Of a stretch of DNA of 64,000 nucleotides, positions 6,562 to 42,419 are shown one piece after another; position 1 is the stretch's first letter; the number at the start of each line of letters is the position of its first letter. The DNA lies in IMG/VR virus record IMGVR_UViG_3300030110_002054, positions 1-64,000 of that record. One strand, written 5' to 3'. The position numbers and the translations under genes are program-made. This stretch comes from a virus. The notes below the pieces were generated by a model that ran no database searches, was not told where the DNA came from, and saw nothing but the letters and a program-made list of their open reading frames with translations.

Positions 6562-7954
6562 CGTTAGCACCCTCCTTCATTCGGAGATACACTACCTTGT
6601 TCTCCTTTACGGTGTCAAACATGTCTTTAGCGTACTTACCAAAGTGATTCCACCCAGTGCCTCTAGTGACTGAATTGAGTTTCATGTACGTCTGTATCAC
6701 GTTGTTCTTCCTGTGCCAACCTGCTCCTCTGGAGTCATCGAAGTCTACGGCATCTGTGTTCTGATACGCTATTGCGAATCTCTTCTTATACTCAGACACC
6801 TCTGTCTTCTTGTATCCAACCTCAACCTCGTCCTCTAACCATAGAATCAGATTCTTGGTCAGGTCGTATAGAATGTCCTTAGCCATGTCAACGTGCTCTC
6901 CTGTCACTTCCCACGACTCGTCTAACATGGCCATGTGTGTTGCGAAGATGACTGTGTAGTTCTCAACAGCAGGCATGAATGAAGCCACCACATCACCGAT
7001 ACCCGGCCCTAGACCGTCTAGTAGAGAGTAGTAGTCTTCTATGGAGTCATACGCAGCAGCGTAGAAGTCATCTCCTGCTGTGAACATCTGATGCATATGA
7101 GACTGTAGTAGTTCCTCTTGGTCATACCTGTTCATAGTGTCCCAGTCAGAGAAGGATGTCTCACTGATGTTGAGCAGTCTGTCTCTCACCCTCTTAGTCA
7201 GCCCTTTGAAGTAATTCACTATGTCATCGTGCTCGACAGACAACTTGGGTATTTTCTTGAAAGCCATCTCCATCCTCTTCATGCTCACACCCATCCTCTT
7301 GTCTGTGTCCCAGTCTGCCCAGTACAGCAGAACCCTCTGGAAGATACCCTTAGTCAGAACGTACTCCTTGACACCCTTCGGTGGGAAAGTGGTAATCCAC
7401 ATTGACACCAATGACTCGGTTTCTATTCTACCGGCCTTAGTGTGTTTCACGAGTATGTTGTTGTTGCTACCTACAGGGTTGCAAGCAGACTGTAGATACA
7501 ACACAGTCTCCTGACTGTGCTTGTTGGGGTTAAGTATGATTGAACCCTCATCGAAGTTGAGAGCCTTACGCCCATCTAACAGTCCTTCTTTGAGATGCTT
7601 GACTGTTTCACCATCAACAGTCTCTTCTTCCCATCCACCTATCAGAGCAGCGTCAGTCCCTGTAGTGTACATCTCAGTGGGTATCTCGGCCTCTCTACAG
7701 ATGTCACCTATGAACTCCCAAGACACAGACTTACCAGACCTGCTAGGTTGAATCCAAAACACGTGCACACGTGGGTCTAGATGTGATGAACCCCAAGGTA
7801 TCCTCACAAAAGGAACAGCAACCTGTCCCTGTAGGAAGAAGAAGGAAAGCATTCCCGGTATGTCGTTTTCCATTGATGTCTGTCTAAAGTGCTCCAAGTA
7901 CCCCTTGAACAAAGGAAACTTCTGCACTGCTTGGTACTCTGAGTAGTGACGCAT
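6554..7954 (-). CDS. MCM-like AAA+ ATPase, candidate replicative helicase
   Basis: Walker A PSRSGKS, YTTG..AALIG and Walker B ALNFDE. Located in the replication cluster. Confidence 0.55.
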   Translation of the reverse strand: MRHYSEYQAVQKFPLFKGYLEHFRQTSMENDIPGMLSFFFLQGQVAVPFVRIPWGSSHLDPRVHVFWIQPSRSGKSVSWEFIGDICREAEIPTEMYTTGTDAALIGGWEEETVDGETVKHLKEGLLDGRKALNFDEGSIILNPNKHSQETVLYLQSACNPVGSNNNILVKHTKAGRIETESLVSMWITTFPPKGVKEYVLTKGIFQRVLLYWADWDTDKRMGVSMKRMEMAFKKIPKLSVEHDDIVNYFKGLTKRVRDRLLNISETSFSDWDTMNRYDQEELLQSHMHQMFTAGDDFYAAAYDSIEDYYSLLDGLGPGIGDVVASFMPAVENYTVIFATHMAMLDESWEVTGEHVDMAKDILYDLTKNLILWLEDEVEVGYKKTEVSEYKKRFAIAYQNTDAVDFDDSRGAGWHRKNNVIQTYMKLNSVTRGTGWNHFGKYAKDMFDTVKENKVVYLRMKEGANDE

Positions 7955-8015
7955 GAGTGACCCCAAACGGGGTCAGTACTTAATACATACTATGTATATA
8001 CAAGACAGTCGTACA

Positions 8016-8720
8016 TTATACACTTCTTTTTACCTTTCTCTCTACTACCATCTTCTCTTCAGATGTGAGTGCCTGCACTATTCTACCACGCAGTACATCA
8101 CCTAGACCCTTTATCTTCTTCAGAGATTCAGGGAAGCACATCTCCTCTATGCTTCCACACTCTTCTAGAATCCTATCAGCCATGTCTTTGCCTATACCGG
8201 GTATTGCCAGTAGCATGTCGGCTCTGATATCGTTTGATGCCACTCTTCGTATTGTCCTAGCACCGTGGCTAGACGCTGGTTTGTGCAACTTGTTGTGGAG
8301 TTTGGTAATGAACAAAGCAGCCTCACTGACGTTTGGTGTGTAGAATACTTGACACTCAAAGTCACTCATGATGCGTGCTATAGTACCAGTCAACTCATTC
8401 TGTATCCTAGTGTATGTCACCTTCTTGCCTGTCTTCTTAGCCATAGCAACATACTTGTCTATACCACCGTGTATGACTAAGAAGAAGCGTTGGTAGTTGA
8501 TGTCCATGTTCTCCAGTTGCCTCCATAGATGACCACTGTGACTGGATAGAAATAGGTCGTTGATGCTCTTGGCCTCAACACAAGCCTCACCTAGAAGATA
8601 GTCCCCCACCACTAGCGGTTTTCTTATCACAGACAAACCTGCTTTCTCCGCCTTACGTATTACTGAATCACACAGTACACCCCGTTCATTGCTGTCAACA
8701 ATCATAGCAGGTCTTCTCAT
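8016..8720 (-). CDS. ERCC4/XPF-family structure-specific nuclease with HhH domain
   Basis: IVDSNE, GDY and VEAKS catalytic motifs. C-terminal IPGIG/IKGLG helix-hairpin-helix pair. Confidence 0.9.
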   Translation of the reverse strand: MRRPAMIVDSNERGVLCDSVIRKAEKAGLSVIRKPLVVGDYLLGEACVEAKSINDLFLSSHSGHLWRQLENMDINYQRFFLVIHGGIDKYVAMAKKTGKKVTYTRIQNELTGTIARIMSDFECQVFYTPNVSEAALFITKLHNKLHKPASSHGARTIRRVASNDIRADMLLAIPGIGKDMADRILEECGSIEEMCFPESLKKIKGLGDVLRGRIVQALTSEEKMVVERKVKRSV

Positions 8721-8935
8721 TCTCTTTCCCTCCTAGCATGTATCTTACATAGTTTCTTAGATGCACCTGTTATTCTGAAACAACACTGAGTACCTGCATT
8801 TGTGATAGCCTGACATCTGTGTTCTGGTGGCGGGTGTGTGAAACATCGTTGACATAAATTGGTAAAGGCCTTCCTGTTACCATTCCTACTAGGTAGTTTC
8901 TTTCCACATTCTTTACACATTCTTCTGGCATTCAT
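8717..8935 (-). CDS. Small Cys-rich zinc-finger protein
   Basis: CKECG...CQRC and C..T..G..C...C..H patterns. Coupled to neighbours. Confidence 0.6.
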   Translation of the reverse strand: MNARRMCKECGKKLPSRNGNRKAFTNLCQRCFTHPPPEHRCQAITNAGTQCCFRITGASKKLCKIHARRERE

Positions 8936-10042
8936 TCAATCATCCTCCGCTGTTCCGTCATAGTATCTACACCTTCCAGTGCAAACACCGTCGTGTATTA
9001 GGGTGCGACAAGTCGCTGGGATATACCCGTTGTTGCCACCACTACCCATAACTATGCTCTTGACTTGATGTCTAGTGACTGAGGGGTTGAAGTCAACCCA
9101 CTCCTGCGCCTCTATGATATCGACAATCTGGTTTACATGGCTCTGCTTCTCCTCTAATGAAGGGTACTCAGGTGGGAAGAACCATCTCAATCTACCTGCT
9201 AGATATGATGCGAAGTGAACCCTAGCCTTGTGTGTGGGGTTACCACCACCCATCGCTGACTGTGCTAGGCATGGTAGAATAATCATATTGTCAATGGCAA
9301 GTTCAGGTAAGTCGATGTTCTTGTACTCCTTACCCTTGAACTTCTTACTTCTCTTTTTGATTTGTAGTTTGACAGTCTCAGTGCCGTGCTTGATAAAACC
9401 AGAACGTGACTCTTGTGACATTTCTATGAGGTCATCATGGTTGCACGTCATCACTTCATGGGAAGTAAGAGGGATTGTCCAGCAGCCTCTTCTGCTGTTG
9501 TAGGAGTTAGGTATCCTAATCATACCAGCAGTATCGAAGGCAACAGTGGGGTCGTTGCAGTACAAGTCTAACTTCTTGTGCCAGTCAGAGAGGAGGACTC
9601 TTCCTGCTTCCTTGACCATGGCAACGTCGTATCCTGTGGAGGGTGTGTGGGTCTTGCTAAGTGGTATCCAAAAATGAAAACCACCACCACTAAACCAAAT
9701 ATAGTGGATTTTGTTGCTGCTTTTTAAGTGGGTGTGGAGTGTACGCACTTGCTCTTGCATCTCGTCAAACGGCACATCCTCACCTTTCTTCCTGAAGTTC
9801 TTGCAATCAAAGTCACACACGAAGTGTCTGATGATTGGCGTGTTGTAGTCAACCCTGTGGTTTCGAGGTGGGGTCAGGCTTCTGTATCCATACGCAGTGA
9901 AGTATACATTGCCACTCCCGTTCTTTCCTCTCCAATAACTCTCAAGTTCCTCGGAGTTCTTCACCAGTCTCCTGAAACCCTTGTTACCATCAGAGTTCAA
10001 TTCAAGAACTTCTCTTGGGAAGTCCAGTGTGATGAAACTCAT
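8936..10042 (-). CDS. Archaeo-eukaryotic primase with fused PriL-like Cys-containing C-terminal domain
   Basis: DFD, SGGGFH and IRIPNS AEP motifs. C-terminal LPC...H.AR...C......C...C resembles the PriL Fe-S domain. Confidence 0.85.
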   Translation of the reverse strand: MSFITLDFPREVLELNSDGNKGFRRLVKNSEELESYWRGKNGSGNVYFTAYGYRSLTPPRNHRVDYNTPIIRHFVCDFDCKNFRKKGEDVPFDEMQEQVRTLHTHLKSSNKIHYIWFSGGGFHFWIPLSKTHTPSTGYDVAMVKEAGRVLLSDWHKKLDLYCNDPTVAFDTAGMIRIPNSYNSRRGCWTIPLTSHEVMTCNHDDLIEMSQESRSGFIKHGTETVKLQIKKRSKKFKGKEYKNIDLPELAIDNMIILPCLAQSAMGGGNPTHKARVHFASYLAGRLRWFFPPEYPSLEEKQSHVNQIVDIIEAQEWVDFNPSVTRHQVKSIVMGSGGNNGYIPATCRTLIHDGVCTGRCRYYDGTAEDD

Positions 10043-10043
10043 C

Positions 10044-10376
10044 CTAATCCTTCTGCCTTAGGTGTTCCATTTTTACTTCCACGTCATCAATCATGTCACT
10101 AACGATACCCCCAATGTCAGGATTGTTCAGTAGAGTCTTGCTGATTGCTATGTCTAGATAGTCATGCTTCTCACCCTCAGGTGGTTGTACTCCTATGTCA
10201 CCATACTCGTGTAGTGTAGTTTGTCTGCTTAATGCGATAGTATAGTGCTCTCTACCTATCATCTTCATACTGACATTCACATTCATGTATGGTACTAATC
10301 TAGACACTACCCCTGTCAAGACTTTCTCTAGCATTCTCTGGCAATTTCTTCTCTCTTCATTATCTTCTCTGTTCAT
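10044..10376 (-). CDS. Hypothetical protein (start MNREDN)
   Basis: GGAG upstream and ATGA overlap with the upstream gene. Confidence 0.6.
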   Translation of the reverse strand: MNREDNEERRNCQRMLEKVLTGVVSRLVPYMNVNVSMKMIGREHYTIALSRQTTLHEYGDIGVQPPEGEKHDYLDIAISKTLLNNPDIGGIVSDMIDDVEVKMEHLRQKD

Positions 10377-11350
10377 TCTAACTCCTCCAATGTCCACGCA
10401 GGACAGATATCGAGAAAGTCGCACCAAGAGCACTTAAACTCGTTTCTGCTTGCGGGAAATGACTTATCCAAGTGGGCCTTGACTAACTTCTTCAGCCTAC
10501 GCTCCACTACTGCTGGGGTGTTTCTAGCACTTCTGTCATTGACAGACTGGTAATCCCAGTGCTTACCATCGCCTTGATTGATGTTTCCACCGGGGAACTC
10601 CCATCCCCAGTGTGTGATGGGAAGGAACTCACCATGCGGGCTGTTCTCTAGCATCATCTTGTAGAACTGCATCTCTGCTCTCATGTCAGATGACTTCCTA
10701 GTCTTCCACTTGCCGGTCTTCAATTCCATCAATGCGAAACCTCCCTCACCATCTTCAAATATCCTATCAATGAAACCTTTCATATGAATAGGCACATTTA
10801 CAATCTCACCATCATCCATCTTTATCTCTACTATTCTGCTACCATGTACTTCTGCCTCATTACCAGCGGGAAACCAATTCTCCCCCTCACAGGCTAGCAG
10901 TCTATTGAATTGCCAATCGACCCAAGCAGTAATCTGCTCAGGCTCACCATACTGATATGGTTCAGGCGGTGTGGGTATGACAGAGTGCATCAAGTTCCTT
11001 GCCTTCTCTATCTCTTCCTTACCTATAAGTTCCATGACCTCATCATAGTGGTCGTACATCTTCTCAAAGAAGTATTCAGTAAAGTCGTGAACATTAGTCC
11101 CTCTAATGTGGTGGTCTTTCTCTTCAGTTGGGAGTTTCATAATGTTCTGAAACTCATACTGCTTTGCACAGAAGCCGAACGTACCTAGACTACTCTTAGT
11201 CACTCTAAGTATTTGCTCTACACCATCAACCACCATACCGGGCTGCCAAGCGTATGTACTCTTATTGTATGACTCAAGCAGGTCATCGAAGGGATAGTCA
11301 TCCCTCTCGGTCCTGTCTATCTTTATGTCCTCATTGGGATTGTACCTCAT
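10373..11350 (-). CDS. Cas4-like / RecB-type PD-(D/E)xK exonuclease
   Basis: S.L..F..C, G...H, GFIDR, MELKTG and QFY motifs, plus C-terminal CSWCDFLDIC (4-Cys cluster). Start revised to MRYNPN. Confidence 0.85.
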   Translation of the reverse strand: MRYNPNEDIKIDRTERDDYPFDDLLESYNKSTYAWQPGMVVDGVEQILRVTKSSLGTFGFCAKQYEFQNIMKLPTEEKDHHIRGTNVHDFTEYFFEKMYDHYDEVMELIGKEEIEKARNLMHSVIPTPPEPYQYGEPEQITAWVDWQFNRLLACEGENWFPAGNEAEVHGSRIVEIKMDDGEIVNVPIHMKGFIDRIFEDGEGGFALMELKTGKWKTRKSSDMRAEMQFYKMMLENSPHGEFLPITHWGWEFPGGNINQGDGKHWDYQSVNDRSARNTPAVVERRLKKLVKAHLDKSFPASRNEFKCSWCDFLDICPAWTLEELE

Positions 11351-11475
11351 TCTCCACACCCCTCGCATCTGAATTGTGAGAATGGTTTTTGACAGTTGGG
11401 GCACATAGGTATGCCTTTCACCATGTGTGTGGTAGTGAGTCCTTGCCATCCGCAGTTGCATTTCGATATCATCAT
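11347..11475 (-). CDS. Cys-rich microprotein (42 aa, not in ORF track)
   Basis: MMISKCNCGW...MCPNCQKPFSQFRCEGCGE. ATGA overlaps on both sides. Confidence 0.55.
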   Translation of the reverse strand: MMISKCNCGWQGLTTTHMVKGIPMCPNCQKPFSQFRCEGCGE

Positions 11476-32210: not shown

Positions 32211-32389
32211 TCTTCCTCACCTGTCCATTTCCTATCACCCATCAGGTTGTTCCAATGTTCCCAATGGACATCTTCAGGATACCATGATTCCATCGTGTTG
32301 CCCCAATAGTCCACTCGCACTATGCGACCATCATCTTCAGGATAGAGTACCGTTCCACCATCAGACAGTTCAATTCCTTCGTCACTCAT
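32207..32389 (-). CDS. Small hypothetical protein
   Basis: Coupled ORF. Confidence 0.55.
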   Translation of the reverse strand: MSDEGIELSDGGTVLYPEDDGRIVRVDYWGNTMESWYPEDVHWEHWNNLMGDRKWTGEEE

Positions 32390-32781
32390 TCTTCTTCACC
32401 CCACCTTAAGTTCCATCCTTGTTCTGTTAGTTCTCTCTTAGAAACATCATAGGTCATTAACTCCTTGAGTTTCGCCATGATGCTCCTTTGCTTCTTCTTC
32501 CCAATCAGAAGTCTTTCCTCGTTACCATTAGGATGAGATACTCGCATGAGTATTCCCTTCTCCATAGGTTGCCAATTGAACAACTCACATCGTTGTAAGT
32601 AGTTCTGCCAAATCTTGGATTCCTTCCAACATATGCTGAATGTTATCGTTGATATGTTATTCAGATTGAAGAACATGAACTGTGACTTGTCCAATGATTG
32701 AACTGCCATATACATTCTAATGCCTTCATTTGCATTGTAGAAGTGACTTCTCTTTCCTTCTCCGTGTTCCTCAATGCTCAT
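32386..32781 (-). CDS. Hypothetical protein (start MSIEEH)
   Basis: ATGA overlap with the helicase stop. Confidence 0.55.
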   Translation of the reverse strand: MSIEEHGEGKRSHFYNANEGIRMYMAVQSLDKSQFMFFNLNNISTITFSICWKESKIWQNYLQRCELFNWQPMEKGILMRVSHPNGNEERLLIGKKKQRSIMAKLKELMTYDVSKRELTEQGWNLRWGEEE

Positions 32782-34220
32782 CCTACTCGCCTCCCGCAGT
32801 AATTCAGAACCTTCTTCGCTCTTGTAATTGCAACATAGCATAGGTTCATCTCTTGTTCTCTATCAGCCTTTGACTTAGCCATCGGATGTGGCATTAGGTC
32901 AGGCTTTAGAATCCAAACGGTATTTGACTCAAGACCCTTAGCCTTGTGAATAGTAGAGAAGACAACACCTGCCCTCTTACCATCATCAAAGATAGTCTTG
33001 ATGTTATCCATCAATCCCTTCACAGTCTGAGTATTAGCCATCAATGCGAATAGACAGTCTCTCCTATCCTGTAGGTTATGTGCGAACTTCTCCTTCTCCT
33101 GCTCCATCAACATGCGAACTTGAACATCCACATACTTGACCAATGCTTCCTTGAAAGAAGCAATGTCCATTGAAACATCTTGTGTCACCTTCTTGACCAA
33201 TGCATTGAGCGATTGCCCAATATCTCTTCCGAGAACATATGCTGGTATTCCAGCAGTAATCAAAGAGAAACAATGACTCACTAGTGGTGCATTGACTCTA
33301 CAAAGAACCATGTCTCCTACCTTTGGAACAAAGTCCACATTAGTATTTACTTCACCTTCTTCAGCATTATCTGCCGCTTCAAAGTCGGGTACGAATCTGT
33401 TAGCCTCTTGGACTACTGCCGTTGGACATCTCCAAGATACTGTCAAAGGAAACTCCTTGATTTCCCTTGAAGAGAACTTTAGTGAATCCTTGAAGATAGA
33501 CATACTCCTAGAATCTGCTCCTCTAAATCCATAGATTGCTTGCTTTGGGTCACCGACAATTATCATCCTTCCACCATTACAGGCTTTGAGAATCAATCTC
33601 CTTTGTGACTCATTGAAGTCCTGTGCCTCATCAACGAATACCACATCATAGTGCTTGACTGGCAATTCCAATACAACTGGTAGCCATATCATGTCATCGA
33701 AGTTGAAGATGCTCACATCTAGACTCAGGTTCTTAATCTGAGGTAGTTTGAGTATTGCATTGTTCTTCTCGCGTATGCCATCAAACTCTATGCTATACTC
33801 ATCAATCAGGTTCTCGATACCAGCCTTATCATCCCACTCAATCATTGATGACTTGAGTAGAGAGATTAGTTTCTTCAATCCCTGCTTGGACTTGAAGTTC
33901 TTACCCATTACTGCCTTGACTATGTTATCGTCCTTCTTGAAATCCATCTTGGCTTTACTGTTGTGTCTTTTCAAAGCACCCATACCTAGAGAGTGAAAGG
34001 TCTTGGCCTCACAATCCATTGGCAACTTCGTGCCTATCTCCGTAGCAATCGACTTGTTGAATGCTAAGAATAACTTAGACACATTGGGTATTCGATTAGC
34101 CCCTTCTACGATGGTGAATGTCTTGCCCGTTCCGGCTTTAGCATCAACCACCAAATGGTCTGTGCTTTCGACCATCTCTTTCCATATTCGTTCTTGTTGT
34201 TCTGTTCCTACTATTTTCAT
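32778..34220 (-). CDS. UvrD/Rep-like superfamily 1 helicase
   Basis: AKAGTGKT, LAFNK, TFHS, VDEAQD, VGDPKQAIYGFRGA, STIHKAKGLE and YVAITRAK. Start MKIVGT with AGGAG upstream. Confidence 0.95.
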   Translation of the reverse strand: MKIVGTEQQERIWKEMVESTDHLVVDAKAGTGKTFTIVEGANRIPNVSKLFLAFNKSIATEIGTKLPMDCEAKTFHSLGMGALKRHNSKAKMDFKKDDNIVKAVMGKNFKSKQGLKKLISLLKSSMIEWDDKAGIENLIDEYSIEFDGIREKNNAILKLPQIKNLSLDVSIFNFDDMIWLPVVLELPVKHYDVVFVDEAQDFNESQRRLILKACNGGRMIIVGDPKQAIYGFRGADSRSMSIFKDSLKFSSREIKEFPLTVSWRCPTAVVQEANRFVPDFEAADNAEEGEVNTNVDFVPKVGDMVLCRVNAPLVSHCFSLITAGIPAYVLGRDIGQSLNALVKKVTQDVSMDIASFKEALVKYVDVQVRMLMEQEKEKFAHNLQDRRDCLFALMANTQTVKGLMDNIKTIFDDGKRAGVVFSTIHKAKGLESNTVWILKPDLMPHPMAKSKADREQEMNLCYVAITRAKKVLNYCGRRVG

Positions 34221-34401
34221 TTTTCTTTCTCCTTTAATTTTCAAAAAAGAAAACCACAAACACAAGTTACGAAACGCCTGAAGTGCGTTACGAAACGTCA
34301 TGTCTGTTTTTTGTCTTCTTCTTGACTAGTTATTTGTGAAGTTACATATTTACTTTTATTAGTGTCCTATATGACTTTCCAAATAAAAGTAAAAAAATAA
34401 G

Positions 34402-34447
34402 AGGAAGTTACACAGACTCGATTTACACCGAATTTGTGTAACTTTCC
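34402..34447. terminator. Intergenic hairpin (GGAAGTTACACA...TGTGTAACTTTCC)
   Basis: Imperfect inverted repeat just after the stop of 34451..35173, followed by T-tracts on the - strand. Confidence 0.45.
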
Positions 34448-34450
34448 AAC

Positions 34451-35173
34451 TTACTCTTCTTCGTTTTCTTTTCCTCCCTTCGGGACATATGTGGTTCTCC
34501 TGTATGCCCGCTTCTTGAGTTTCCTCTTCTCATGCTTGAGCATGGCAGATAACTCCATCTGTTCGGTTTCGATGGTTTCCATCATCCTCGCCATTCTGTC
34601 TAATCTCTGATTAAGCGCAGTTATACGAGGACTGACATCCGCTTGGATAGACTCCATCTTCTGAATGTTGGTATTCATACGACCATTCAAAGTAGCGATG
34701 CTACCTAGCACCTTATCCTTGAATGGAGTATCATCATCATTCATTGCCAATTCTATAGCCTTCGCTACCTGCTCATTGACTGCCTTCTTGAAGTGTTGAG
34801 TAGTTAGGAACCTGTCCCTAATTATCTCCTCTTCAGTAAAGGGATTAATCTCACTAGGAGAAGCATCATTACTTTCATGGTGGAAAGCCTGTCCTGCTAC
34901 TGTTGAGAGTCTTATCTCAATCTCCTCTATTCTAGCAAGAGTCTTTGGTAATTCTGACATCTGAGTTGATACCCAAGTTTCCATCGCTTTGGCATTAGCC
35001 ACTTTGACATACTGGTTATTCATACCATCTCTGTCTCTAACTAGGCCGGACTTGTTTACTCTCACCCTGTGTTCTTCACAGAATTTAGGTTGCACCATTC
35101 CTGTTCTTACTACGAATGGCCGTTGGCACTTATGTCCGTCTTCCATTACAAATTCACATCTTTTTCTTATCAT
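34451..35173 (-). CDS. Zn-finger plus coiled-coil protein, first gene of the - arm
   Basis: N-terminal C.....C...FCEEH, long heptad region and basic tail. Confidence 0.65.
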   Translation of the reverse strand: MIRKRCEFVMEDGHKCQRPFVVRTGMVQPKFCEEHRVRVNKSGLVRDRDGMNNQYVKVANAKAMETWVSTQMSELPKTLARIEEIEIRLSTVAGQAFHHESNDASPSEINPFTEEEIIRDRFLTTQHFKKAVNEQVAKAIELAMNDDDTPFKDKVLGSIATLNGRMNTNIQKMESIQADVSPRITALNQRLDRMARMMETIETEQMELSAMLKHEKRKLKKRAYRRTTYVPKGGKENEEE

Positions 35174-35239
35174 TCTTATTCCTCTAATATTGTTATGTTG
35201 ATGAGACTATATGAAGTGTCATCAATTTGAGTGTTTGGC

Positions 35240-35775
35240 AGGGGCGAACTACGCGCCGCATTACTCTTAGAACTCTCGATAGTATTCTAAGAAACCTACC
35301 TCAAGGGTTGGTATTAGCAACCTTACAGTTACGGAGAAGATATATGGGGGCTTCTCCGATTTGGTTGAGTGGTTATTGGGGGAGATGAACCGTGCTATGC
35401 CGTTAAGCGCAGGGATGCATACGATGCCGTGACTAGACATCATGGTTTTATTTATTGAAATGCTGACTACTGCTGAACCTTATGGTTCTTCTTATACCGG
35501 ACAGTAAGTTAAACATGCTCGATTAACTTAAGCAACTCCTCTCTCCAAGGATATCTCTCCCGACAACCGAAGTTGTGGGAAAAGAAGTATCCGAGTCGAT
35601 GGTCAACCCTTGTATCTTCATTCATCTTTACTACTCAAACCCCAATTCCCGACTGTGCAAATCCTCCGCTAAGATTCATTGGTCACCACATTTGTGTCGA
35701 GTTGTTATTCTCATGTTTCTAACATGAGGATGATAAAACCGAAATGCCGTTTGAGTGGGGCTAACCTCGGTTTTC
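35240..35775. ncRNA. Candidate large structured non-coding RNA or ssDNA structure
   Basis: No ORF of 60 aa or more. At least 7 local stem-loops plus a long-range helix (35365-35389 with 35621-35638), several with G-T pairs. Confidence 0.35.
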
Positions 35776-35779
35776 TTTG

Positions 35780-36060
35780 ATTTTCTCATTATTCTCATTA
35801 TTCTCACTAGTTTTCTAGAGAGAGAGAGTATAGGTGTGTGTGGGGGGTATGTTGTTGTGTATAATGTATGTTAATAATGATAATATTGAGAATATTACTC
35901 TAAATCGTTCATACTACCCATTCACGCCTTTCGGTTCTCTCATATCCGTGAGAATATTGTGAGAGAACCAAACATAAGATGCTATCTTATGAATACCATA
36001 TATATGATATTAGTATATATGATAGATATCTATACCTATATGGTATGATATGTGAGTCTT
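35780..36060. other. Candidate replication origin at the strand switch
   Basis: TTCTCA/TGAGAA short repeats in both orientations. AT-rich core with IR ATACCATATA/TATATGGTAT (35993-36046) and palindrome ATAGATATCTAT. Confidence 0.4.
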
Positions 36061-36260
36061 GATTTGACTGTGATACCAAGCCACATATATTGGTGGTTAC
36101 GAATAACTCCAATCACTTGTGTTCATTGATATGCTAGTTTGATTTCACATGCAGTCAAAGGAGGACTTTTTTCCTCAGTAAGTGCCTGTGACTACCCTAT
36201 ATTAGGGTGGGGCGACACTTACCCCTACCCTGAATCATTTATCTCTTGATTGATTTAGCA

Positions 36261-36300
36261 ACCATATGGTAGGACACTTTGTCGTAAAGACCCCATAGAG
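36261..36300 (+). repeat. Cassette site 1 (right arm only)
   Basis: ACCATATGGT aggac ACTTTGTcgtaaag ACCCCATAg. No ACAAAGT arm on the left. Confidence 0.85.
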
Positions 36301-36364
36301 GGTTAATCAGGCCCATAGATGCTTTAGGAGGGTTGGTGAGACAACCTTACAGGAGGAAAACAAT

Positions 36365-36835
36365 ATGGAATGGCAAGAATTTACGGGAATGGTTACGACC
36401 TACGCAAATGACAAGAAATCGGAGATAGACTCAGAGGATAAGACCTCTGTTCTCCGCCTCATAGAAAGAGGGAACGCAAATGAAAAGAAGCAAGCACGTT
36501 GCACTACTGCAATTAGGCTAATTATCGGAGACTACTCTGATAGCCCAACTAACAGTAGGGGCTTCTCGCTTCCAGATGATGCACAGGCAGTCGTTCAGTC
36601 TGCATATGATGCAATCGCTGGACTAGCATCCGTCTATAACGAGAACCCAGTTATAGCGGCTCTTCTTCTGCCTCACGGCAGGAGTACCGCTACTCACCTA
36701 GATGGTGAGACATGGGCAAACCGAATGGTAAGCCACATGGAAGACACGGCTCGCTCGCTATACGAGAGCAAAACATGGGACGGTTCTGAGAAGAGCCTCG
36801 TTGCTACGGTGTCCTTCACCACGGAGGATAACTGA
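36365..36835 (+). CDS. Cassette 1 protein, paralog of cassette 4 protein
   Basis: AGGAGG SD. Shares SV..LIERG..N..K..R..T.IR...SD.P...SLP and W.G....L with 38116..38721. Confidence 0.8.
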   Translation: MEWQEFTGMVTTYANDKKSEIDSEDKTSVLRLIERGNANEKKQARCTTAIRLIIGDYSDSPTNSRGFSLPDDAQAVVQSAYDAIAGLASVYNENPVIAALLLPHGRSTATHLDGETWANRMVSHMEDTARSLYESKTWDGSEKSLVATVSFTTEDN

Positions 36836-36957
36836 TTAGGCAATTTGCCTTCCCTCCTTTAGCACAGACTACTCAAGTCTTACATAGATAACAATCCGTA
36901 AGTCCTAGATGTGGTGGTAGTAATATCACTACCTAAATTCTCTAGGCTGGGTTGGGG

Positions 36958-37030
36958 CTATGGGGTTTGAAGCGACAAAGTGCCGAACCATATGGTAATG
37001 CACACTTTGTCGTGACAGACCCCATATAGG
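36958..37030 (+). repeat. Cassette site 2
   Basis: GGGGT..cgACAAAGTgccga ACCATATGGT aatgcac ACTTTGTcg..ACCCCATATAG. Confidence 0.9.
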
Positions 37031-37049
37031 TTGTAGGACAAACTAAGAC

Positions 37050-37238
37050 ATGGTTAACCTACAGAGAAGGCACTTCAGATGGCTTGCAGAGTTTGCAGTC
37101 ACGGCCCAACTAGATGAAGAACAACGAGAGCAATTGATTAATGCTTGTAGATATACAAACAGTAATTTTGATGCTGGCAGGATGAGAGAATACATGAAAT
37201 CACATCATAGGTTGATTTACATGTACGAAATGGAGTGA
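37050..37238 (+). CDS. Cassette 2 protein A (helical, L...HF..LA....TNSNFD..R motif)
   Basis: ATG about 22 nt after the CATATA box, consistent with a leaderless mRNA. Confidence 0.7.
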   Translation: MVNLQRRHFRWLAEFAVTAQLDEEQREQLINACRYTNSNFDAGRMREYMKSHHRLIYMYEME

Positions 37239-37247
37239 GGTGAGAAA

Positions 37248-37451
37248 GTGGAAAGTGAAAGAATAGTGAATGAAGCAATGAAAGTATATCAGTATGAGAT
37301 TGATGTTGGTCACTCTAAGAGTGGTTCAAATCATGTCATCATTATCAAGAGCCTAAAGGTTCGGAGTGATGACCTTGCAAATGCAATACAGGAAATACAA
37401 GCAGCACTAAGGGCATTTAATGACCTTGGGGGCTGCCCTGATTGCAAATGA
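37248..37451 (+). CDS. Cassette 2 protein B
   Basis: GTG start with GAGGTGA SD. Followed by a GC hairpin. Confidence 0.65.
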   Translation: MESERIVNEAMKVYQYEIDVGHSKSGSNHVIIIKSLKVRSDDLANAIQEIQAALRAFNDLGGCPDCK

Positions 37452-37481
37452 TGTTGTGGGGGCTATGCCCCTACTTCATCA

Positions 37482-37546
37482 GGGTGTTAGCGACAAAGTG
37501 CATTACCATATGGTAAGTTACTTTGTGTTCACGCACCCCATATAGG
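37482..37546 (+). repeat. Cassette site 3
   Basis: GGGT..cgACAAAGTgcatt ACCATATGGT aagtt ACTTTGTgt..ACCCCATATAG. Confidence 0.9.
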
Positions 37547-37565
37547 GGGGTAACAGAGTATTACC

Positions 37566-37922
37566 ATGCAAGATGAGTTAAAACAAGCATATGTTGAAAG
37601 AAAGATGGAAGCAGACCCGAATATTCGGTTCTTCAAGGAGAATGAAGTTGGGGACATACATTTGGAGAGTATGATAGCAAGGCAGAAGGAAACCTATGAA
37701 AGGGAGTATGATTCTTCAATGGCCGCAGTCATGAATATCATGGAGGAGAACGGCATTGAGGAAGATGTCTTCTTCGGATTCGATGTAATCGTCAAAGACC
37801 TTCTGATGTCACTCGCTGAGGCAAATAGCGAGATGGAAGAGCGACTTGGAGATTGGGAATACTACGCTGACGAGTTGTATGACAACATCTCATCCGCAAT
37901 CAGCGATGGTCGTCCTTGGTAA
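37566..37922 (+). CDS. Cassette 3 protein (very acidic)
   Basis: 118 aa, D/E-rich. ATG about 22 nt after CATATA. Confidence 0.75.
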   Translation: MQDELKQAYVERKMEADPNIRFFKENEVGDIHLESMIARQKETYEREYDSSMAAVMNIMEENGIEEDVFFGFDVIVKDLLMSLAEANSEMEERLGDWEYYADELYDNISSAISDGRPW

Positions 37923-37987
37923 TCATCCAGCGGTAATAGCGGCTAGGGGGGAGAGAAAATGGCCTATTCTCTCCCTCCAACATCTTC

Positions 37988-38056
37988 GGGGTAACGTTGA
38001 CACAAAGTAACTACTACCATATGGTATGATACTTTGTCATGGTCACCCCATATAGC
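37988..38056 (+). repeat. Cassette site 4
   Basis: GGGGT..acACAAAGTaactact ACCATATGGT atgat ACTTTGTcat..ACCCCATATAG. Confidence 0.9.
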
Positions 38057-38115
38057 CATCACACATACATTAACTGTCCGTGGAGGGCATTCCTAACAGG
38101 AAAGGAGATAATACA

Positions 38116-38721
38116 ATGGCAGAAAGAAATAAACAAGAACCAATGACAGATAGTAAGTGGAAAGAAAGCATAGTGCAGAAGTGGAAGAACTGGGTAAAGG
38201 ATAACCCGGATTGGGAGGACTACTATGACGGACTAATGAGTGTCCCTTCTCTAATTGAGAGAGGAACTAAGAACGCTGAGAAGAGGCGCAGAATAGCAAC
38301 TGGTATCAGAACTTGCTTCATAGCGATGGAAGTAAGTGACAACCCATTTGCGGCAGGTGCTACTTCATCACTACCTGAGAAGGTCGAGAGAACCAAGACC
38401 ACCGAATTAGGTGAACTCAAAAAGGCATACATCAACTTCTGGAAAACATGTGCGCAAGCACGAAGGTATCTAGTAAAATCGAAGCGTGGCGGAGGGGGAG
38501 TTTTCTCCTCTGCTGAGGAATTCGCTCAGTATCAGATTGACCTATTGACCAACAAGTTGTCAGCCTACTACAACGACTTCGCAGATGGCAAGACCACCAA
38601 GGACTATCATTGGAAGGGAACCCAAACCGCACTCATCAACAATATACCCCTATTGAAGAAGGCGAAAGAAGCAGACGCAAAGAAGACCGAACAAGAAGAG
38701 GCCTCCAAGGAGGCTGAATAG
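38116..38721 (+). CDS. Cassette 4 protein, paralog of cassette 1 protein
   Basis: AGGAGA SD before ATG 38116. Motifs shared with 36365..36835. Confidence 0.8.
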   Translation: MAERNKQEPMTDSKWKESIVQKWKNWVKDNPDWEDYYDGLMSVPSLIERGTKNAEKRRRIATGIRTCFIAMEVSDNPFAAGATSSLPEKVERTKTTELGELKKAYINFWKTCAQARRYLVKSKRGGGGVFSSAEEFAQYQIDLLTNKLSAYYNDFADGKTTKDYHWKGTQTALINNIPLLKKAKEADAKKTEQEEASKEAE

Positions 38722-38748
38722 GATTGTCTCCTCCACGGACAACCCTTC

Positions 38749-38815
38749 GGGGTCTTTAATGGCAAAGCATACCAACCATATGGTAGGCTACTTTGTGCCT
38801 GACTACCCCATATAC
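38749..38815 (+). repeat. Cassette site 5
   Basis: GGGGT..atgGCAAAGcatacca ACCATATGGT aggct ACTTTGTgc..ACCCCATATA. Confidence 0.9.
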
Positions 38816-38836
38816 CCCTAATTCCAGACTAAGCAT

Positions 38837-39643
38837 ATGGCAGACACAAGCGTGACATATGAAAGAACAATGAAAGTGACCTACCCTAGAGAAGGCGGTA
38901 GGTTATCATCTAAACTGATAAGGAGACTTCAGCAGATGTTGACAACCTTTGGGATATACATGGTGTATAGATGTGGTTGGGGAGAACCCGACTACAGTTC
39001 CTATGAGGAAGTCGAGAAGACGGAAACCAAGAGGTCTTACAAACTGACCTCGGATGAATCTGACTACGAGATAGTAGATTTCGGAGTAGTCGATTCGACC
39101 TACGAGCGAAGTGGTATGAAGAAAATCGTCAATGCCCTAAATGACTATGCTAGGTCGATGCCCGGTCTATCTCTGGATGAAACGGTAGTCACCACATCTA
39201 CTATGGAACTCCCAAGATGGAAAGGAGATGCGATTTGGATTAACGGTCTAGAAGAACCTCAAGTCATGATGAACCGTGACTATGGCGGAAGCCGAATGAC
39301 TTGGGCAGATGAAACCGATGAAACGGATATGACCAAGATGGAAGTATTGCTAGACCCCAGCACTAGCAATGATTCAGCAATCTTGACCTTCAAGATTTGG
39401 AAGGAGGCAACCAAGACGCAGAACAAGAAAGACATCGAGACATGGTTGGTAGATACCCCATTAGATTTGATGGGAGAGATACAGGCTCACATAGAAACGT
39501 GTCTGTCTGATGTGGGCTTCGACATCACCGAGCCAGTCATTGACTGTCACTTCGATGCGAAGACAGAAAGCCGAAGCGAGTGCGCCCCTGATATCATCGG
39601 GCGACTTCGTGACGCCAAACAACGGACGATTGACAACCAATAG
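38837..39643 (+). CDS. Cassette 5 protein (hypothetical)
   Basis: 268 aa. ATG about 22 nt after CATATA. Followed by a GCCC-TTCG-GGGC hairpin. Confidence 0.8.
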   Translation: MADTSVTYERTMKVTYPREGGRLSSKLIRRLQQMLTTFGIYMVYRCGWGEPDYSSYEEVEKTETKRSYKLTSDESDYEIVDFGVVDSTYERSGMKKIVNALNDYARSMPGLSLDETVVTTSTMELPRWKGDAIWINGLEEPQVMMNRDYGGSRMTWADETDETDMTKMEVLLDPSTSNDSAILTFKIWKEATKTQNKKDIETWLVDTPLDLMGEIQAHIETCLSDVGFDITEPVIDCHFDAKTESRSECAPDIIGRLRDAKQRTIDNQ

Positions 39644-39669
39644 TCCCCTTTGCGCCCTTCGGGGCCATC

Positions 39670-39707
39670 GGGGTTCATTTGCACAAAGTAACATACAACC
39701 ATATGGC
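39670..39707 (+). repeat. Cassette site 6 (left arm only)
   Basis: GGGGT..gcACAAAGTaacataca ACCATATGGC. No normally spaced right arm or CCCCATA box. Confidence 0.85.
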
Positions 39708-39780
39708 TTTGCTTCCAAATTTTTTTTCTTTCTATATGCCCACAAACAAGTTAATGGTCTAATGCTCACCCGCCACGCAT

Positions 39781-39999
39781 GTGGCTAATGAGGATTCGCA
39801 ACTTGAAATATACAAAGAAGCCACAAGAATAGTTAAGGACATACAGGAAGAGGTATCTAACATCCAAACTATGGGGAGGTTAGATTCTAAGTTAAACAAG
39901 ATGCTTAACAGAATTAAAGCAGATACAAAACAACTACTCAAGGAGATAAGAAGTAAGGTGTTTCACCAAACTAGCATAGATGATTGGGGTGGAGATTAA
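39781..39999 (+). CDS. Small helical protein with C-terminal PIP-box-like motif
   Basis: Ends QTSIDDW, similar to the Qxx[ILM]xx[FW] PCNA-interaction motif. Confidence 0.55.
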   Translation: MANEDSQLEIYKEATRIVKDIQEEVSNIQTMGRLDSKLNKMLNRIKADTKQLLKEIRSKVFHQTSIDDWGGD

Positions 40000-40223
40000 A
40001 TGGTAAATGGGGCTTATTCTGGTTATAGGCTAATGATGGGCAAAAATTTTTCGCTAGTCCCAAACAAATCGCGGCCCATTTTTTGAAAAATAAAAGGTGT
40101 GACATTTAATGACAGTAAAAAGACCCGATTGGCAAGAACAACTAAAGATGGGAGGCGCAGTTACAACAGCAACGGGGGGAACTGCGGCCCTGTTTAACAA
40201 TAAAGCGATAAGGGGGAGGAAAC

Positions 40224-41387
40224 GTGCCAAAAAGAAAGAAAGAAAATATTGACAAGGATGAAGATGATGTCGATATAGAGGCAGGTGGCCAAACTTTCTC
40301 CGGTGCGCTAGATACTAAGTCCATGCGCGAGATGTTTAATGCGTGGGAGAAGGAAGCAAGCGGATTAGAGGGAGAATCCATTGGTTCCGTAACTGGACTT
40401 AATCTCCTTCAGGCAATTAAGAGTCAAGGAATGACTGGAAGGCTAAGAGGTGCTGGCCCGAACCTGCCAAACAAAGGTGGGGTTGAGATTTTCAAGGAAC
40501 TAGTAAAGATATTCAATGCCAAGGAGTTCTCACCTGAGCAATTTGATTTCTTGAGAGAATTAGATTCCATGATGAATACCTATTCGGCAGATGACCATCC
40601 CTTGAACCCAGCAAACATCAGATTCGACAACCCGATTGACATAGATGAGAAGGGAAGGACGCTAAAACCCAAAGAGGTGTATGGCCATTATCGAACAGAT
40701 GAGTATGAGAGCGCACAGAAACTCAAAGGGAAGGATAGACCCGCAGTTCCAGATAGTTGGTATAGCGATGGACGAGGTGCAGAACCTCCGATGTGGCAAG
40801 CATTGTATGGAGATGGCAATGGAGATGTCTTTGATGGCATCAGTTTGCACCAAGTTGTAAAGAAGGCAATTGAAAACTTCGATAAGATAGAATTGGAGAT
40901 AACACAAGACGACCCATTGGACTTGACTACTAGGAAACTAGGAACTCCACAGGTTGCTAAGATTCTTCTCACCATTCCTAGCATAAAGGCAATAGTCAAT
41001 ACCTTCATTCAAAGGCTGAAGCAAAATCCAACGAAGACATTTCCCGCTAAGTCTTGTAAATCTGCAATGGAGGCCAACCCAATCAAACTAGGAGCAAGGG
41101 GAAGTCAAGGGGTTAAGACCATCTTGGGCATTAGGGGAATGAAACAAGACATCAAGGAGATGTATGTGAAAATCAGTTGGAGGCAATGCAACAACATGGC
41201 CAAGATACTACTCGGTGACAATTCTCATTGGACAAGTGCTGGCAAGAACTCACTTCGCCTCGGTAAGAAGCCAACAGAGAAAAAGACGACTCCAAAACCC
41301 AAAGCGTCAGCAAAGCCAAAGAATGACGATACCGAGAAAAAATCACTAGATGCCGTTACTGATTGGAGGATGATTGTGAAATGTTGA
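40224..41387 (+). CDS. Hypothetical protein
   Basis: 387 aa, GTG start with GGAGG SD. Confidence 0.75.
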   Translation: MPKRKKENIDKDEDDVDIEAGGQTFSGALDTKSMREMFNAWEKEASGLEGESIGSVTGLNLLQAIKSQGMTGRLRGAGPNLPNKGGVEIFKELVKIFNAKEFSPEQFDFLRELDSMMNTYSADDHPLNPANIRFDNPIDIDEKGRTLKPKEVYGHYRTDEYESAQKLKGKDRPAVPDSWYSDGRGAEPPMWQALYGDGNGDVFDGISLHQVVKKAIENFDKIELEITQDDPLDLTTRKLGTPQVAKILLTIPSIKAIVNTFIQRLKQNPTKTFPAKSCKSAMEANPIKLGARGSQGVKTILGIRGMKQDIKEMYVKISWRQCNNMAKILLGDNSHWTSAGKNSLRLGKKPTEKKTTPKPKASAKPKNDDTEKKSLDAVTDWRMIVKC

Positions 41388-41462
41388 AGTGTTGTGACAT
41401 GAAGATATCCATAATGAACTACTCTGTCAGTTTTTGTCCATACTGCTTTGGGGGTGAAAAAG

Positions 41463-42419
41463 ATGAGTGATGTTCTTTGGGAGGATATGATAAAACAACC
41501 TCCACCACCACCGCCACCTGCTCCTCCAATGCCCCCACCACCAATGGGAGGAATGCCCCCTCCACCGGGAATGGGAATGAACACTCCCGACCCTCCCGGT
41601 AAAATCGTTCAAGACGCACCGGGAACCCAACAAGAGACTGTTGCGGTTGACCCCGATAAGGAGGAAGAAGATGATGAGCAAGTTGAGAAGGGTGCAATTC
41701 AAGATTGGCAAAGCCAATTGCAAGGAGGAGGAACCTACGCTCAAACTCCGACTGGCATCTATATGCCAAGTTATACAAATCCGCAAAATCCACAACAGGC
41801 ACAACAGGCACAACAGGGACAACAAGAAGAAGTACCTGACTCATCAGTTCAACCATCTACCTCAACATACCAACAAAATCTAAATTGGAATGCGCGGGGT
41901 GCTACAGGAGAAAATGCACCAAACCTATCTGATATGAATGATAAGAACATAGAAGAATACTGGGATGCTATGATAGCACAAGGTAACATAAAGCAAATTG
42001 AGAAACCCACAAGGGGTTCCTTGGCTTGGGTTAACCCATTGGTGTTTGATGATGCAGAAGGAAAACAAGTCGATAATAGACGACTTGCTCAACCTGAAAC
42101 CAAAGAAAGTAAACCCCAAGGAAATCAGGCTCAAGGAAATCAGAAATCTAACTGGTTCAGCAATGTAGTCAGCGCACCATCTAAGGCAATCAATAGAGCG
42201 GCAGACGCGGTATTCGGGACGGATGAAGAAATCCAAAATGAAACTTGGATGGAAACAATGACCCAAGGTCGGCCTGAAAGAAAAGCCAAAAAAAATAGGG
42301 CAAGAGAATTAGTGGCGAATAAAAGGCGCACAGGAAAAAATACTCAATCAACTGCCACTAGAAATGAGCGGGGAGAAAGACTGGTTGATTCAGAAGATTC
42401 CACTTGGAGAGATGAATGA
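41463..42419 (+). CDS. Pro/Gln-rich low-complexity protein
   Basis: MSDVLWEDMIK followed by poly-Pro and Q-rich tracts. Confidence 0.7.
   Translation: MSDVLWEDMIKQPPPPPPPAPPMPPPPMGGMPPPPGMGMNTPDPPGKIVQDAPGTQQETVAVDPDKEEEDDEQVEKGAIQDWQSQLQGGGTYAQTPTGIYMPSYTNPQNPQQAQQAQQGQQEEVPDSSVQPSTSTYQQNLNWNARGATGENAPNLSDMNDKNIEEYWDAMIAQGNIKQIEKPTRGSLAWVNPLVFDDAEGKQVDNRRLAQPETKESKPQGNQAQGNQKSNWFSNVVSAPSKAINRAADAVFGTDEEIQNETWMETMTQGRPERKAKKNRARELVANKRRTGKNTQSTATRNERGERLVDSEDSTWRDE

Follow-up and report, generated by a model that had tools for sequence, protein, structure and literature searches.

An array of palindrome-bounded gene cassettes with matched private ends in a magrovirus-like viral genome

What kind of element divides a block of small viral genes into units that all meet at the same short palindrome, and how could such units be traded between genomes? 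The question is raised by five tandem gene cassettes (C1–C5) in the 64,000-nucleotide stretch analysed in the present study, referred to below as the window, which comprises positions 1–64,000 of IMG/VR record IMGVR_UViG_3300030110_002054 (full record, 76.8 kb). On balance, this array is probably a variant of the mobile regulatory cassettes described as promoter-early stem-loops (PeSLs), in the form of palindrome-bounded units exchanged between virus genomes. An original prediction, made from the letters of the window alone, had taken the array for an integron-like system for which no counterpart had been described in archaeal viruses. The array itself was confirmed as an observation; of the interpretation, the self-contained cassettes, the matched ends, the reshuffling and the lack of a recognisable recombinase stood, and the integron features and the absence of precedent did not.

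The array is delimited by six copies of the core ACCATATGG(T/C), all located where the original prediction had placed them. This count was reached by none of 100 dinucleotide-preserving shuffles, and no further exact copy of the core is present elsewhere in the 76.8-kb record. The cores at 36261, 36987, 37505, 38016 and 38775 read ACCATATGGT, and the core at 39698 reads ACCATATGGC:

36261-36270, unstranded, core 1 (ACCATATGGT), left array boundary; arm on the inward side alone, CAAAG box absent upstream
36987-36996, unstranded, core 2, C1/C2 joint
37505-37514, unstranded, core 3, C2/C3 joint
38016-38025, unstranded, core 4, C3/C4 joint
38775-38784, unstranded, core 5, C4/C5 joint
39698-39727, plus strand, core 6, variant ACCATATGGC overlapping a CTTTG box and followed by a T-run; conserved right array end

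The five units measure 726, 518, 511, 759 and 923 bp (C1–C5), in agreement with the predicted size of approximately 510–925 bp, and each carries one or two co-oriented open reading frames (ORFs), all of them on the plus strand. Each core is followed by a spacer of 2–15 nt (mostly 3–10), next by a CTTTG box whose flanks vary, and finally by ACCCC-ATATA. The order within a unit, from 5' to 3', is CTTTG arm, TATA-like box, gene or genes, GC hairpin and second arm. Each unit is an autonomous promoter–gene–hairpin module closed by inverted arms, and the claim that the cassettes are self-contained is supported by their own TATA-like boxes and hairpin/arm ends. The prediction that the two outermost sites carry only the inward-facing arm is correct for site 1, where no CAAAG box lies upstream, and incorrect for site 6, whose outer side reads GG-CTTTG-C followed by a T-run and is conserved in relatives. 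Relatives L014, L086 and L171 share this right array end, and L024 and L118 have it in reverse.

The feature that sets these units apart is the relationship between the two ends of one cassette. The arm pairs of C1–C5 read as the original prediction had quoted them:

36275-36284, plus strand, C1 5' arm, CACTTTGTCG; exact inverted match of 10 nt with 36973-36982
36973-36982, plus strand, C1 3' arm, CGACAAAGTG
36997-37012, plus strand, C2 5' arm, AATGCACACTTTGTCG; pairs with 37491-37504 except for a 2-nt insertion/deletion
37491-37504, plus strand, C2 3' arm, CGACAAAGTGCATT
37516-37528, plus strand, C3 5' arm, AGTTACTTTGTGT; 13/13 with 38000-38012
38000-38012, plus strand, C3 3' arm, ACACAAAGTAACT
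38029-38040, plus strand, C4 5' arm, ATACTTTGTCAT; 10/12 with 38759-38770, two mismatches
38759-38770, plus strand, C4 3' arm, ATGGCAAAGCAT
38789-38798, plus strand, C5 5' arm, TACTTTGTGC; 10/10 with 39681-39690
39681-39690, plus strand, C5 3' arm, GCACAAAGTA

Measured as the exact inverted match around CTTTG, the two ends of C1–C5 agree over 10, 10, 13, 5 and 10 nt, respectively, and the two halves of internal sites 2–5 agree over 10, 7, 8 and 5 nt. Site 2 also forms a palindrome of its own, since the arm CACTTTGTCG is common to C1 and C2.

The claim that a left arm matches the right arm of the previous site better than the other half of its own site was evaluated on 353 cassettes from other viruses, and it holds on these independent data. 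Exact inverted matches of at least 10 nt were present in 15.9% of own-cassette arm pairs, compared with 1.5% of same-site halves (Mann-Whitney p 3.5e-9) and 2.1% of arms taken from different loci (p 1.6e-20), the same-site halves being indistinguishable from random arm pairs. With the window excluded and a single cassette retained per nucleotide family, matches of this length were present in 16.2% of the cassettes, compared with 2.1% of the controls (binomial p 1.8e-21). The excess is confined to offset +1, that is, to arms facing into the same cassette, and, position by position, it extends two to four bases on either side of CTTTG. Scoring of across-cassette against within-site complementarity thus gave a clear excess across the cassette. 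Own arms joined across the core, as they would be in a hypothetical circle junction, fold with a mean of −9.9 kcal/mol compared with −7.8 kcal/mol for the sites as they stand in the arrays (p 5e-16; DNA energy parameters), and the array sites fold no better than random arm pairs; in the window, the joined arms reach −13 to −21 kcal/mol, and the sites as they stand mostly give −8 to −11 kcal/mol. The description of the cassette ends as cassette-specific inverted repeats is supported by these results. A hairpin within the single arm was considered as the source of the long cross-cassette matches in the window and was rejected as such: complementarity between the bases next to CTTTG was found in 55% of arms (34% expected), positions 2–6 show it only weakly, and this partial feature does not account for the matches.

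The matched ends also co-vary. Within gene families, the same arm type occurred at both ends in 17 of 90 cassettes, compared with 8.3 ± 2.1 when the 3' arms were shuffled within families, and family 1 alone contains three different matched arm types. In L171, the nearest relative of the window (approximately 74% nucleotide identity), all five cassettes have matched ends (10, 10, 8, 10 and 9 nt), and the arm letters differ from those of the window orthologues in C3, C4 and C5, the C1 arm being unchanged. At closer range the arms hardly move: a strain 98.4% identical to the window differs at 54 positions in the 3.5-kb array, with only 1 difference in the 480 nt of site windows against 8.3 expected (P 0.002), so that over short time scales the "variable" letters of the arms are kept. 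Cassettes found only beside different neighbours had longer matches than those found only beside homologous neighbours (7.36 versus 6.51, p 0.0017, for rows that are non-independent), an association of matched ends with change of context that is suggestive only.

The same site organisation is widespread among viral sequences. The CAAAG-N-core-N-CTTTG pattern was present in at least 119 IMG/VR stretches, with approximately 580 cores among the matches listed and arrays of up to 11 cores. Within arrays the core was perfect in 330 of 341 sites (97%) and carried one mismatch in the remaining 11. Among 176 confidently oriented cassettes of relatives, the CTTTG arm was found at 173 of the 5' ends and 163 of the 3' ends, TATA-like boxes at 78 5' ends versus 26 3' ends, and CCC-loop-GGG hairpins at 80 3' ends versus 10 5' ends. 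In five related genomes, three of them complete according to CheckV, all cores lie in one cluster of 4–5 kb, except that a 185-kb record has two clusters. By contrast with the viral arrays, 596 Gb of prokaryote genomes yielded only singletons at about the chance rate and one contig with seven cores. This contig, L154 (NZ_NZTP01000027.1, labelled as an Altibacter sp. metagenome-assembled genome (MAG)), is a magrovirus fragment mis-binned into a flavobacterial MAG, because its cassette proteins are 88–90% identical to those of a magrovirus locus and it carries a UvrD homologue. The idea of a host operator was rejected, the motif not being found in prokaryote genomes beyond chance. The magrovirus literature that was searched makes no mention of the element, and the article titles matched by a search for the core sequence all concern unrelated subjects, none of them viruses or archaea.

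Some variants of the arrangement were seen in relatives. The 185-kb record, G002 (L009/L068), which is rated complete, holds two different arrays at 5306-9029 and 99604-103195, approximately 94 kb apart, which probably reflects either the joining of two related genomes during assembly or a genome of truly double length. Mini-units of 90–130 bp between two cores, of which the window has none, contain a GGAGG box and a micro-ORF and are devoid of CTTTG arms (L071:4200-4311, L040:3387-3591, L017:8361-8490, L034:473-615, L102:1458-1584, L117:12747-12877); the encoded peptides are very acidic and 6–11 residues long, e.g., M-F-F-D-D-D-E or M-Y-D-D-E-D, and occur in many genomes and in either orientation. 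Two cores only 49–50 bp apart, around an arm-less AT-rich spacer, were located exactly where two cassettes diverge (L005:1905-1965, L010:1253-1313, L067:7359-7419, L114:7224-7283).

Comparison of cassette number, order and identity between genomes was based on the clustering of 429 cassette bodies into families. For cassettes 80–95% identical that are located in different loci, 50 neighbour comparisons were non-homologous and 32 homologous. At the 51 junctions compared, identity was 0.6–0.9 inside the cassette right up to the core and fell to 0.25–0.45 immediately outside. Sixteen family pairs were adjacent in one genome and one to three cassettes apart in another, order swaps were found between L088 and both L112 and L118, and the same five cassettes that are arranged C1-C2-C3-C4-C5 in the window follow the order C1-C4-C2-C3-C5 in L171. 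According to the original prediction, simple repeated operator or promoter elements would be marked by identical gene order and content in relatives; since content and order differ and homology ends at the core, the array does not fit that description. Confidently called cassettes occurred in both orientations in 19 of 112 loci, and complete sites are also present between convergent genes, away from any promoter. An invertible segment of the shufflon or flip-switch type was rejected: both relative orientations were found for only 1 of 111 neighbouring family pairs, that one with different neighbours, no inversion in place was seen, and no serine or tyrosine recombinase was found in the record or in five relatives.

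TATA-like boxes number six in the window against 1.1 expected, and bacterial-type promoters are not enriched (11 found against 8.8 expected). The boxes of the array and a representative terminal hairpin are as follows:

36290-36299, plus strand, C1 TATA-like box, ACCCCATAGA; start predicted approximately 24 nt downstream, at 36321
37019-37028, plus strand, C2 TATA-like box; centre 24 nt before the ATG at 37050, leaderless geometry
37535-37544, plus strand, C3 TATA-like box; centre 24 nt before the ATG at 37566
38045-38054, plus strand, C4 TATA-like box; predicted start 38076, 40-nt leader with GGAG
38805-38814, plus strand, C5 TATA-like box; centre 25 nt before the ATG at 38837
38743-38752, plus strand, C4 end hairpin CCC-TTCG-GGG; similar hairpins in C3 and C5 (C5: 39654-39665)

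The geometry of C2, C3 and C5 is that of leaderless transcripts, and C1 and C4 have leaders of approximately 40 nt with a GGAG motif. Transcript evidence was available in the form of assembled contigs. Metatranscriptome run X19 contains four contigs identical to the window, each within a single cassette: those of C1 and C4 begin exactly at the starts predicted from the TATA-like boxes, 36321 and 38076, and the C4, C3 and C5 contigs span 38076-38655, 37575-37845 and 38938-39404, respectively. None of the four bridges a site. No match to an RNA family was obtained in Rfam.

The genes carried by the cassettes are small and belong to no recognisable family, all six cassette proteins having zero matches in Pfam and PHROGs:

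36365-36835, plus strand, C1 gene, 156 aa; helical paralog superfamily
37050-37451, plus strand, C2 genes, 62 aa (37050-37238) and 67 aa (37248-37451); both kept in relative L171
37566-37922, plus strand, C3 gene, 118 aa
38116-38721, plus strand, C4 gene, 201 aa, paralog of C1; ATG at 38116, not GTG at 38080
38837-39643, plus strand, C5 gene, 268 aa; family found in 17 cassettes of relatives

The divergent helical superfamily of C1 and C4 accounts for about one third of the cassette proteins (108 of approximately 330), usually with two to four copies per array. The AlphaFold (AF2) model of C1, with a predicted local distance difference test score (pLDDT) of 89, resembles generic three-helix bundles only; a profile built from 40 members of the C1/C4 family found no relative in PDB, and the homologues are exclusively unnamed marine proteins. 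A protein identical to that of C1 is carried by 18 contigs. The proteins adjoining the array (387 aa and 240 aa), considered as candidate binders of the site, have no recognisable family in Pfam, PHROGs or Atlas.

The closest described analogue is found in T4-type phages, where PeSLs constitute mobile regulatory cassettes in the hyperplastic regions (Arbiol et al. 2010, PMC2839356, cited here and below from excerpts; Comeau et al. 2014, PMC4122927). According to the excerpted text of PMC2839356, these promoter–terminator linkers bound ORFan genes, act as crossover points and can yield mini-circles, and their authors themselves liken PeSL cassettes to integrons. The likeness to the array described here extends to the small ORFan genes in a hyperplastic block, the composite promoter and stem-loop motif at the gene boundaries, the breakpoints of insertion, deletion, replacement and reordering at that motif, and the lack of an identified dedicated recombinase. 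The relationship is one of analogy and not homology: the T4-type motif consists of a sigma-70 promoter and a GGGG...CCCC stem, whereas an archaeal TATA-type promoter is used here and no sequence homology exists. Moreover, an invariant 10-bp perfect palindrome with oriented CAAAG/CTTTG boxes takes the place of a promoter motif of approximately 50–70 bp, there is one array per genome, and the units occur in both orientations. The co-varying private inverted ends have no equivalent in the excerpted text of the PeSL paper (PMC2839356). Mini-circles were physically demonstrated for PeSLs according to the same excerpts, whereas the present array is known from assembled sequence, in which no circle was seen. 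A precedent in archaeal viruses also exists, for the haloarchaeal myovirus HGTV-1, likewise a tailed virus, has a PeSL-like motif of a TATA box plus inverted repeat (Sencilo et al. 2013, via excerpts of PMC3950731), compared here by its description; the summary given there names no invariant palindromic core, cassette-private ends or population-scale evidence. The statement that no comparable system had been described was therefore too strong, since the PeSL cassettes and the HGTV-1 motif, as these excerpts present them, are of the same kind. Lambdoid phage morons are single accessory genes with their own promoter and terminator (Hendrix et al. 2000, via the excerpts of PMC2839356). Morons are scattered and have no conserved flanking linker, whereas here the same palindrome bounds every unit and all units stand in one array.

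On the PeSL-type reading, the palindrome with its two flanking CTTTG boxes would act as a conserved boundary or linker between units and would be held by a dimeric virus-encoded DNA-binding protein. Whole units would be exchanged, reordered, gained and lost between genomes at the palindrome, in the manner of PeSL-mediated modular shuffling in T4-type phages. Strand exchange would probably be performed by the general recombination and repair functions that the virus encodes, namely an ERCC4/helix-hairpin-helix (HhH) nuclease, a PD-(D/E)XK nuclease, UvrD and SNF2 helicases and a ligase, or by a protein not yet recognised as such. The evolving unit would be the cassette rather than the site, with the private inverted repeat of both ends changing in concert; because these ends are concerted, they are taken to meet at some stage, either at the junction of an excised circle, folded on itself, or in a panhandle of single-stranded DNA. 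We infer both this intermediate and the exact point of crossover. A crossover at the central TA, as originally proposed, cannot be placed because the core never varies.

Several observations weigh against the PeSL-type reading. For ordinary homologous recombination, a 10-bp core and its two 5-bp boxes offer only a short stretch; the excerpted PeSL paper gives homology patches under 50 bp (PMC2839356). General recombination at the core alone fails to explain why a cassette matches its own ends, and clearly matched ends are present in only a quarter to a third of cassettes. No circle, deletion, skipped-cassette or empty-site joint was found in three DNA runs and one RNA run examined as assembled contigs, which lose rare forms. 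Strains approximately 98% identical, represented by two strain contigs and one 2024 virome contig from different years or sites, are colinear with the window, so shuffling must be slow relative to point substitution, and cassette turnover is evolutionary and not a rapid switch. In the comparison of the window with L171, the first 40 nt of the 5' ends of C3 and C5 are closer to a non-orthologous cassette; breakpoints may therefore not always lie at the core, some exchanges occurring just inside the arm or promoter. Tandem duplication could explain part of the repetition, given that one paralog superfamily makes up a third of the cassettes.

Joints were also sought with exact 27-mers and 28-mers from the 5' ends of C4 and C3 and with the predicted empty site; these gave no match in viral contigs, and the metagenome scan gave two colinear strain contigs. 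A joint from 39594 to 39695 and loose ends at 39694-39731 were rejected as candidates, since they come from other viruses sharing only the conserved array end. One strain contig, L172 (reverse complement), is 98.4% identical to the window over 32386-42120, and its left 4.8 kb has no megablast match to the window, which puts a breakpoint of recombination where the ORF 32386-32841 ends, next to the UvrD gene.

Dedicated site- or structure-specific recombination of the integron type ranks second and is regarded as possible, although rather doubtful. It supposes that cassettes excise as circles and that the resulting junction (3' arm, core, 5' arm) is a bulged hairpin, cut and rejoined at the centre of the palindrome by an unrecognised viral or host recombinase. 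This reading best explains the matched ends: the circle junction folds much better than the array sites, which equal random pairs, the ends co-vary within gene families and between orthologues, and matching accompanies change of context. Breakpoints within a 10-bp core, too short for efficient homologous exchange, and the 97% invariance of that core argue in the same direction, and a symmetric core predicts insertion in both orientations, as seen in relatives. Tandem small single-gene units whose content and order vary between relatives, and ends that would become one complementary folded site on joining, are indeed shared with integrons. It nevertheless ranks second because the enzyme and the physical intermediate are lacking. 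Pfam profiles of integrase, resolvase, Y1 transposase, rve, DDE_3 and DDE_Tnp_1 found no match in the 76.8-kb record, and the first three found none in five relatives, three of them complete, with positive controls; for the tyrosine recombinase family PF00589, nothing was obtained at E<=1 in the record or the five relatives, the positive control being detected in 14 of 14 genomes. These searches uphold the predicted lack of a recognisable recombinase and, with no IntI or other tyrosine recombinase found, also remove a defining feature of integrons. Contig-level data contain neither a circle nor an empty site, an apical ACCATATGGT would give only a weak hairpin tip, and most cassettes have poorly matched ends. 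The other defining features are likewise missing: integrons have one imperfect-palindrome attC per cassette, with crossover at its edge and a GTTRRRY core, whereas the site here is symmetric, halved between neighbours and built on ACCATATGGT; integron cassettes are promoterless and co-oriented behind a common promoter, whereas the units here, hosted by an archaeal virus, each bring a promoter and take both orientations in 19 of 112 loci. There is some chance, no greater than that of the integron-type reading as a whole, that the private ends fold as a circle-junction hairpin or single-strand panhandle and present the palindrome to an enzyme of no known recombinase family, which would make the element an archaeal-virus counterpart of attC with central symmetric crossover and autonomous, orientation-free cassettes.

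If the palindrome were instead regulatory punctuation, that is, an operator or insulator for a dimeric regulator of an early-gene block, with the arms as termination hairpins and shuffling as a passive by-product, several facts would fall into place: at most junctions a TATA-like box follows the site at a distance of 20–30 nt, the site is restricted to a single block beside the strand-switch region and shows strong purifying selection, arrays stay the same from strain to strain, and no recombinase is encoded. We consider this unlikely, because sites also lie between convergent genes with no promoter nearby and around tiny or gene-less units, because the variable core-to-CTTTG spacing (2–15 nt) is odd for one rigid protein footprint, and because it does not explain why a cassette matches its own ends when the halves of a site do not match each other. 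The joints, where inverted ends abut with 2 bp between them, are reminiscent of the reactive junctions that IS30-type elements form, and the private inverted-repeat ends, which start with TGGT and finish with ACCA on either side of the central TA and occur in both orientations, could be those of non-autonomous, cargo-carrying transposons with terminal inverted repeats, similar to miniature inverted-repeat transposable elements, whose insertion would target the TA between two abutting ends and whose movement would depend on a transposase supplied in trans by the host or the virus. Their terminal inverted repeats are a true likeness, but a cognate transposase was not found (rve, DDE_3, DDE_Tnp_1 and Y1_Tnp are absent from the record), each genome has one array and no dispersed copies, prokaryote genomes have no copies beyond chance, and a target-site duplication would be indistinguishable from the palindrome itself, which makes this explanation very improbable. 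An RNA-level role, in which the 5' and 3' arms pair in the transcript and close the mRNA or form a processing stem like those flanking archaeal rRNAs, draws on the complementarity of the ends over 9–13 nt plus the core. It is scarcely credible, given that the 5' arm sits upstream of the TATA-like box, the RNA contigs start downstream of that arm at the predicted starts with none bridging a site, Rfam gives no match, and arms are equally frequent at junctions of either polarity.

In the recombinase-independent precise excision of Tn10 and Tn5, short direct repeats are brought together by inverted ends, and the succession found here (direct repeat, i.e., the core, inverted repeat or arm, cargo, inverted repeat, direct repeat) is the same and would favour the loss of exactly one unit by slippage or looping-out. 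That process only deletes, and it explains neither gain, nor reordering, nor the upkeep of matched ends.

The virus that carries the array resembles group A magroviruses, judging by its Pfam gene set and the published description. According to the Pfam hits, the window belongs to a tailed virus whose replication block runs leftward (family B polymerase, clamp-loader-like ATPase, SNF2 and UvrD helicases, ERCC4/HhH and PD-(D/E)XK nucleases, thermosome subunit) and whose head block runs rightward (terminase, portal, prohead protease), with an ATP-dependent ligase within the head module. Group A magroviruses of Marine Group II archaea have replicative and head-tail blocks, a thermosome subunit, an SNF2 helicase and an ATP-dependent ligase in the structural module (PMC5434244). 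The array begins right past the strand switch near 36,000 and separates the replication genes, which point leftward, from the rightward head genes, and we lean towards regarding these five cassettes as the hyperplastic region in which a magrovirus-like tailed virus of marine archaea keeps its accessory genes. The stretch 35200-36260, approximately 1 kb on the 5' side of the array, is ORF-free and AT-rich, with tatatgata-like repeats and a near-core CCTATATGGT at approximately 36040; it is kept at 75% in L171 and could be a divergent promoter region or a replication origin. In the replication block, the ERCC4 nuclease with helix-hairpin-helix motifs (8016-8720) and the PD-(D/E)XK nuclease (10373-11461) are both candidate enzymes that might make structure-specific cuts at the array.

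In the surface ocean, magroviruses rank with the most abundant viruses (PMC5434244). They are uncultivable, and the array is the place where their accessory genes are stored and traded, the cargo probably serving host takeover or counter-defence. What is new is the combination of an invariant palindromic joint with matched private ends for each unit, one rule across the array-bearing genomes, by which the mobile unit can be defined precisely and searched for, and which gives a direct handle on gene acquisition by archaeal viruses. The cores permit the automatic delimitation of cassettes in metagenomes, as well as the design of outward-facing primers for the detection of circles in seawater DNA. 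The matched ends, absent from the PeSL precedent as excerpted, point to an intermediate that brings the two ends of a unit together. A dedicated enzyme, should there be one, would represent a recombinase of a new kind acting on a compact 10-bp site; otherwise, the array would be a clean natural case of recombinase-free cassette exchange.

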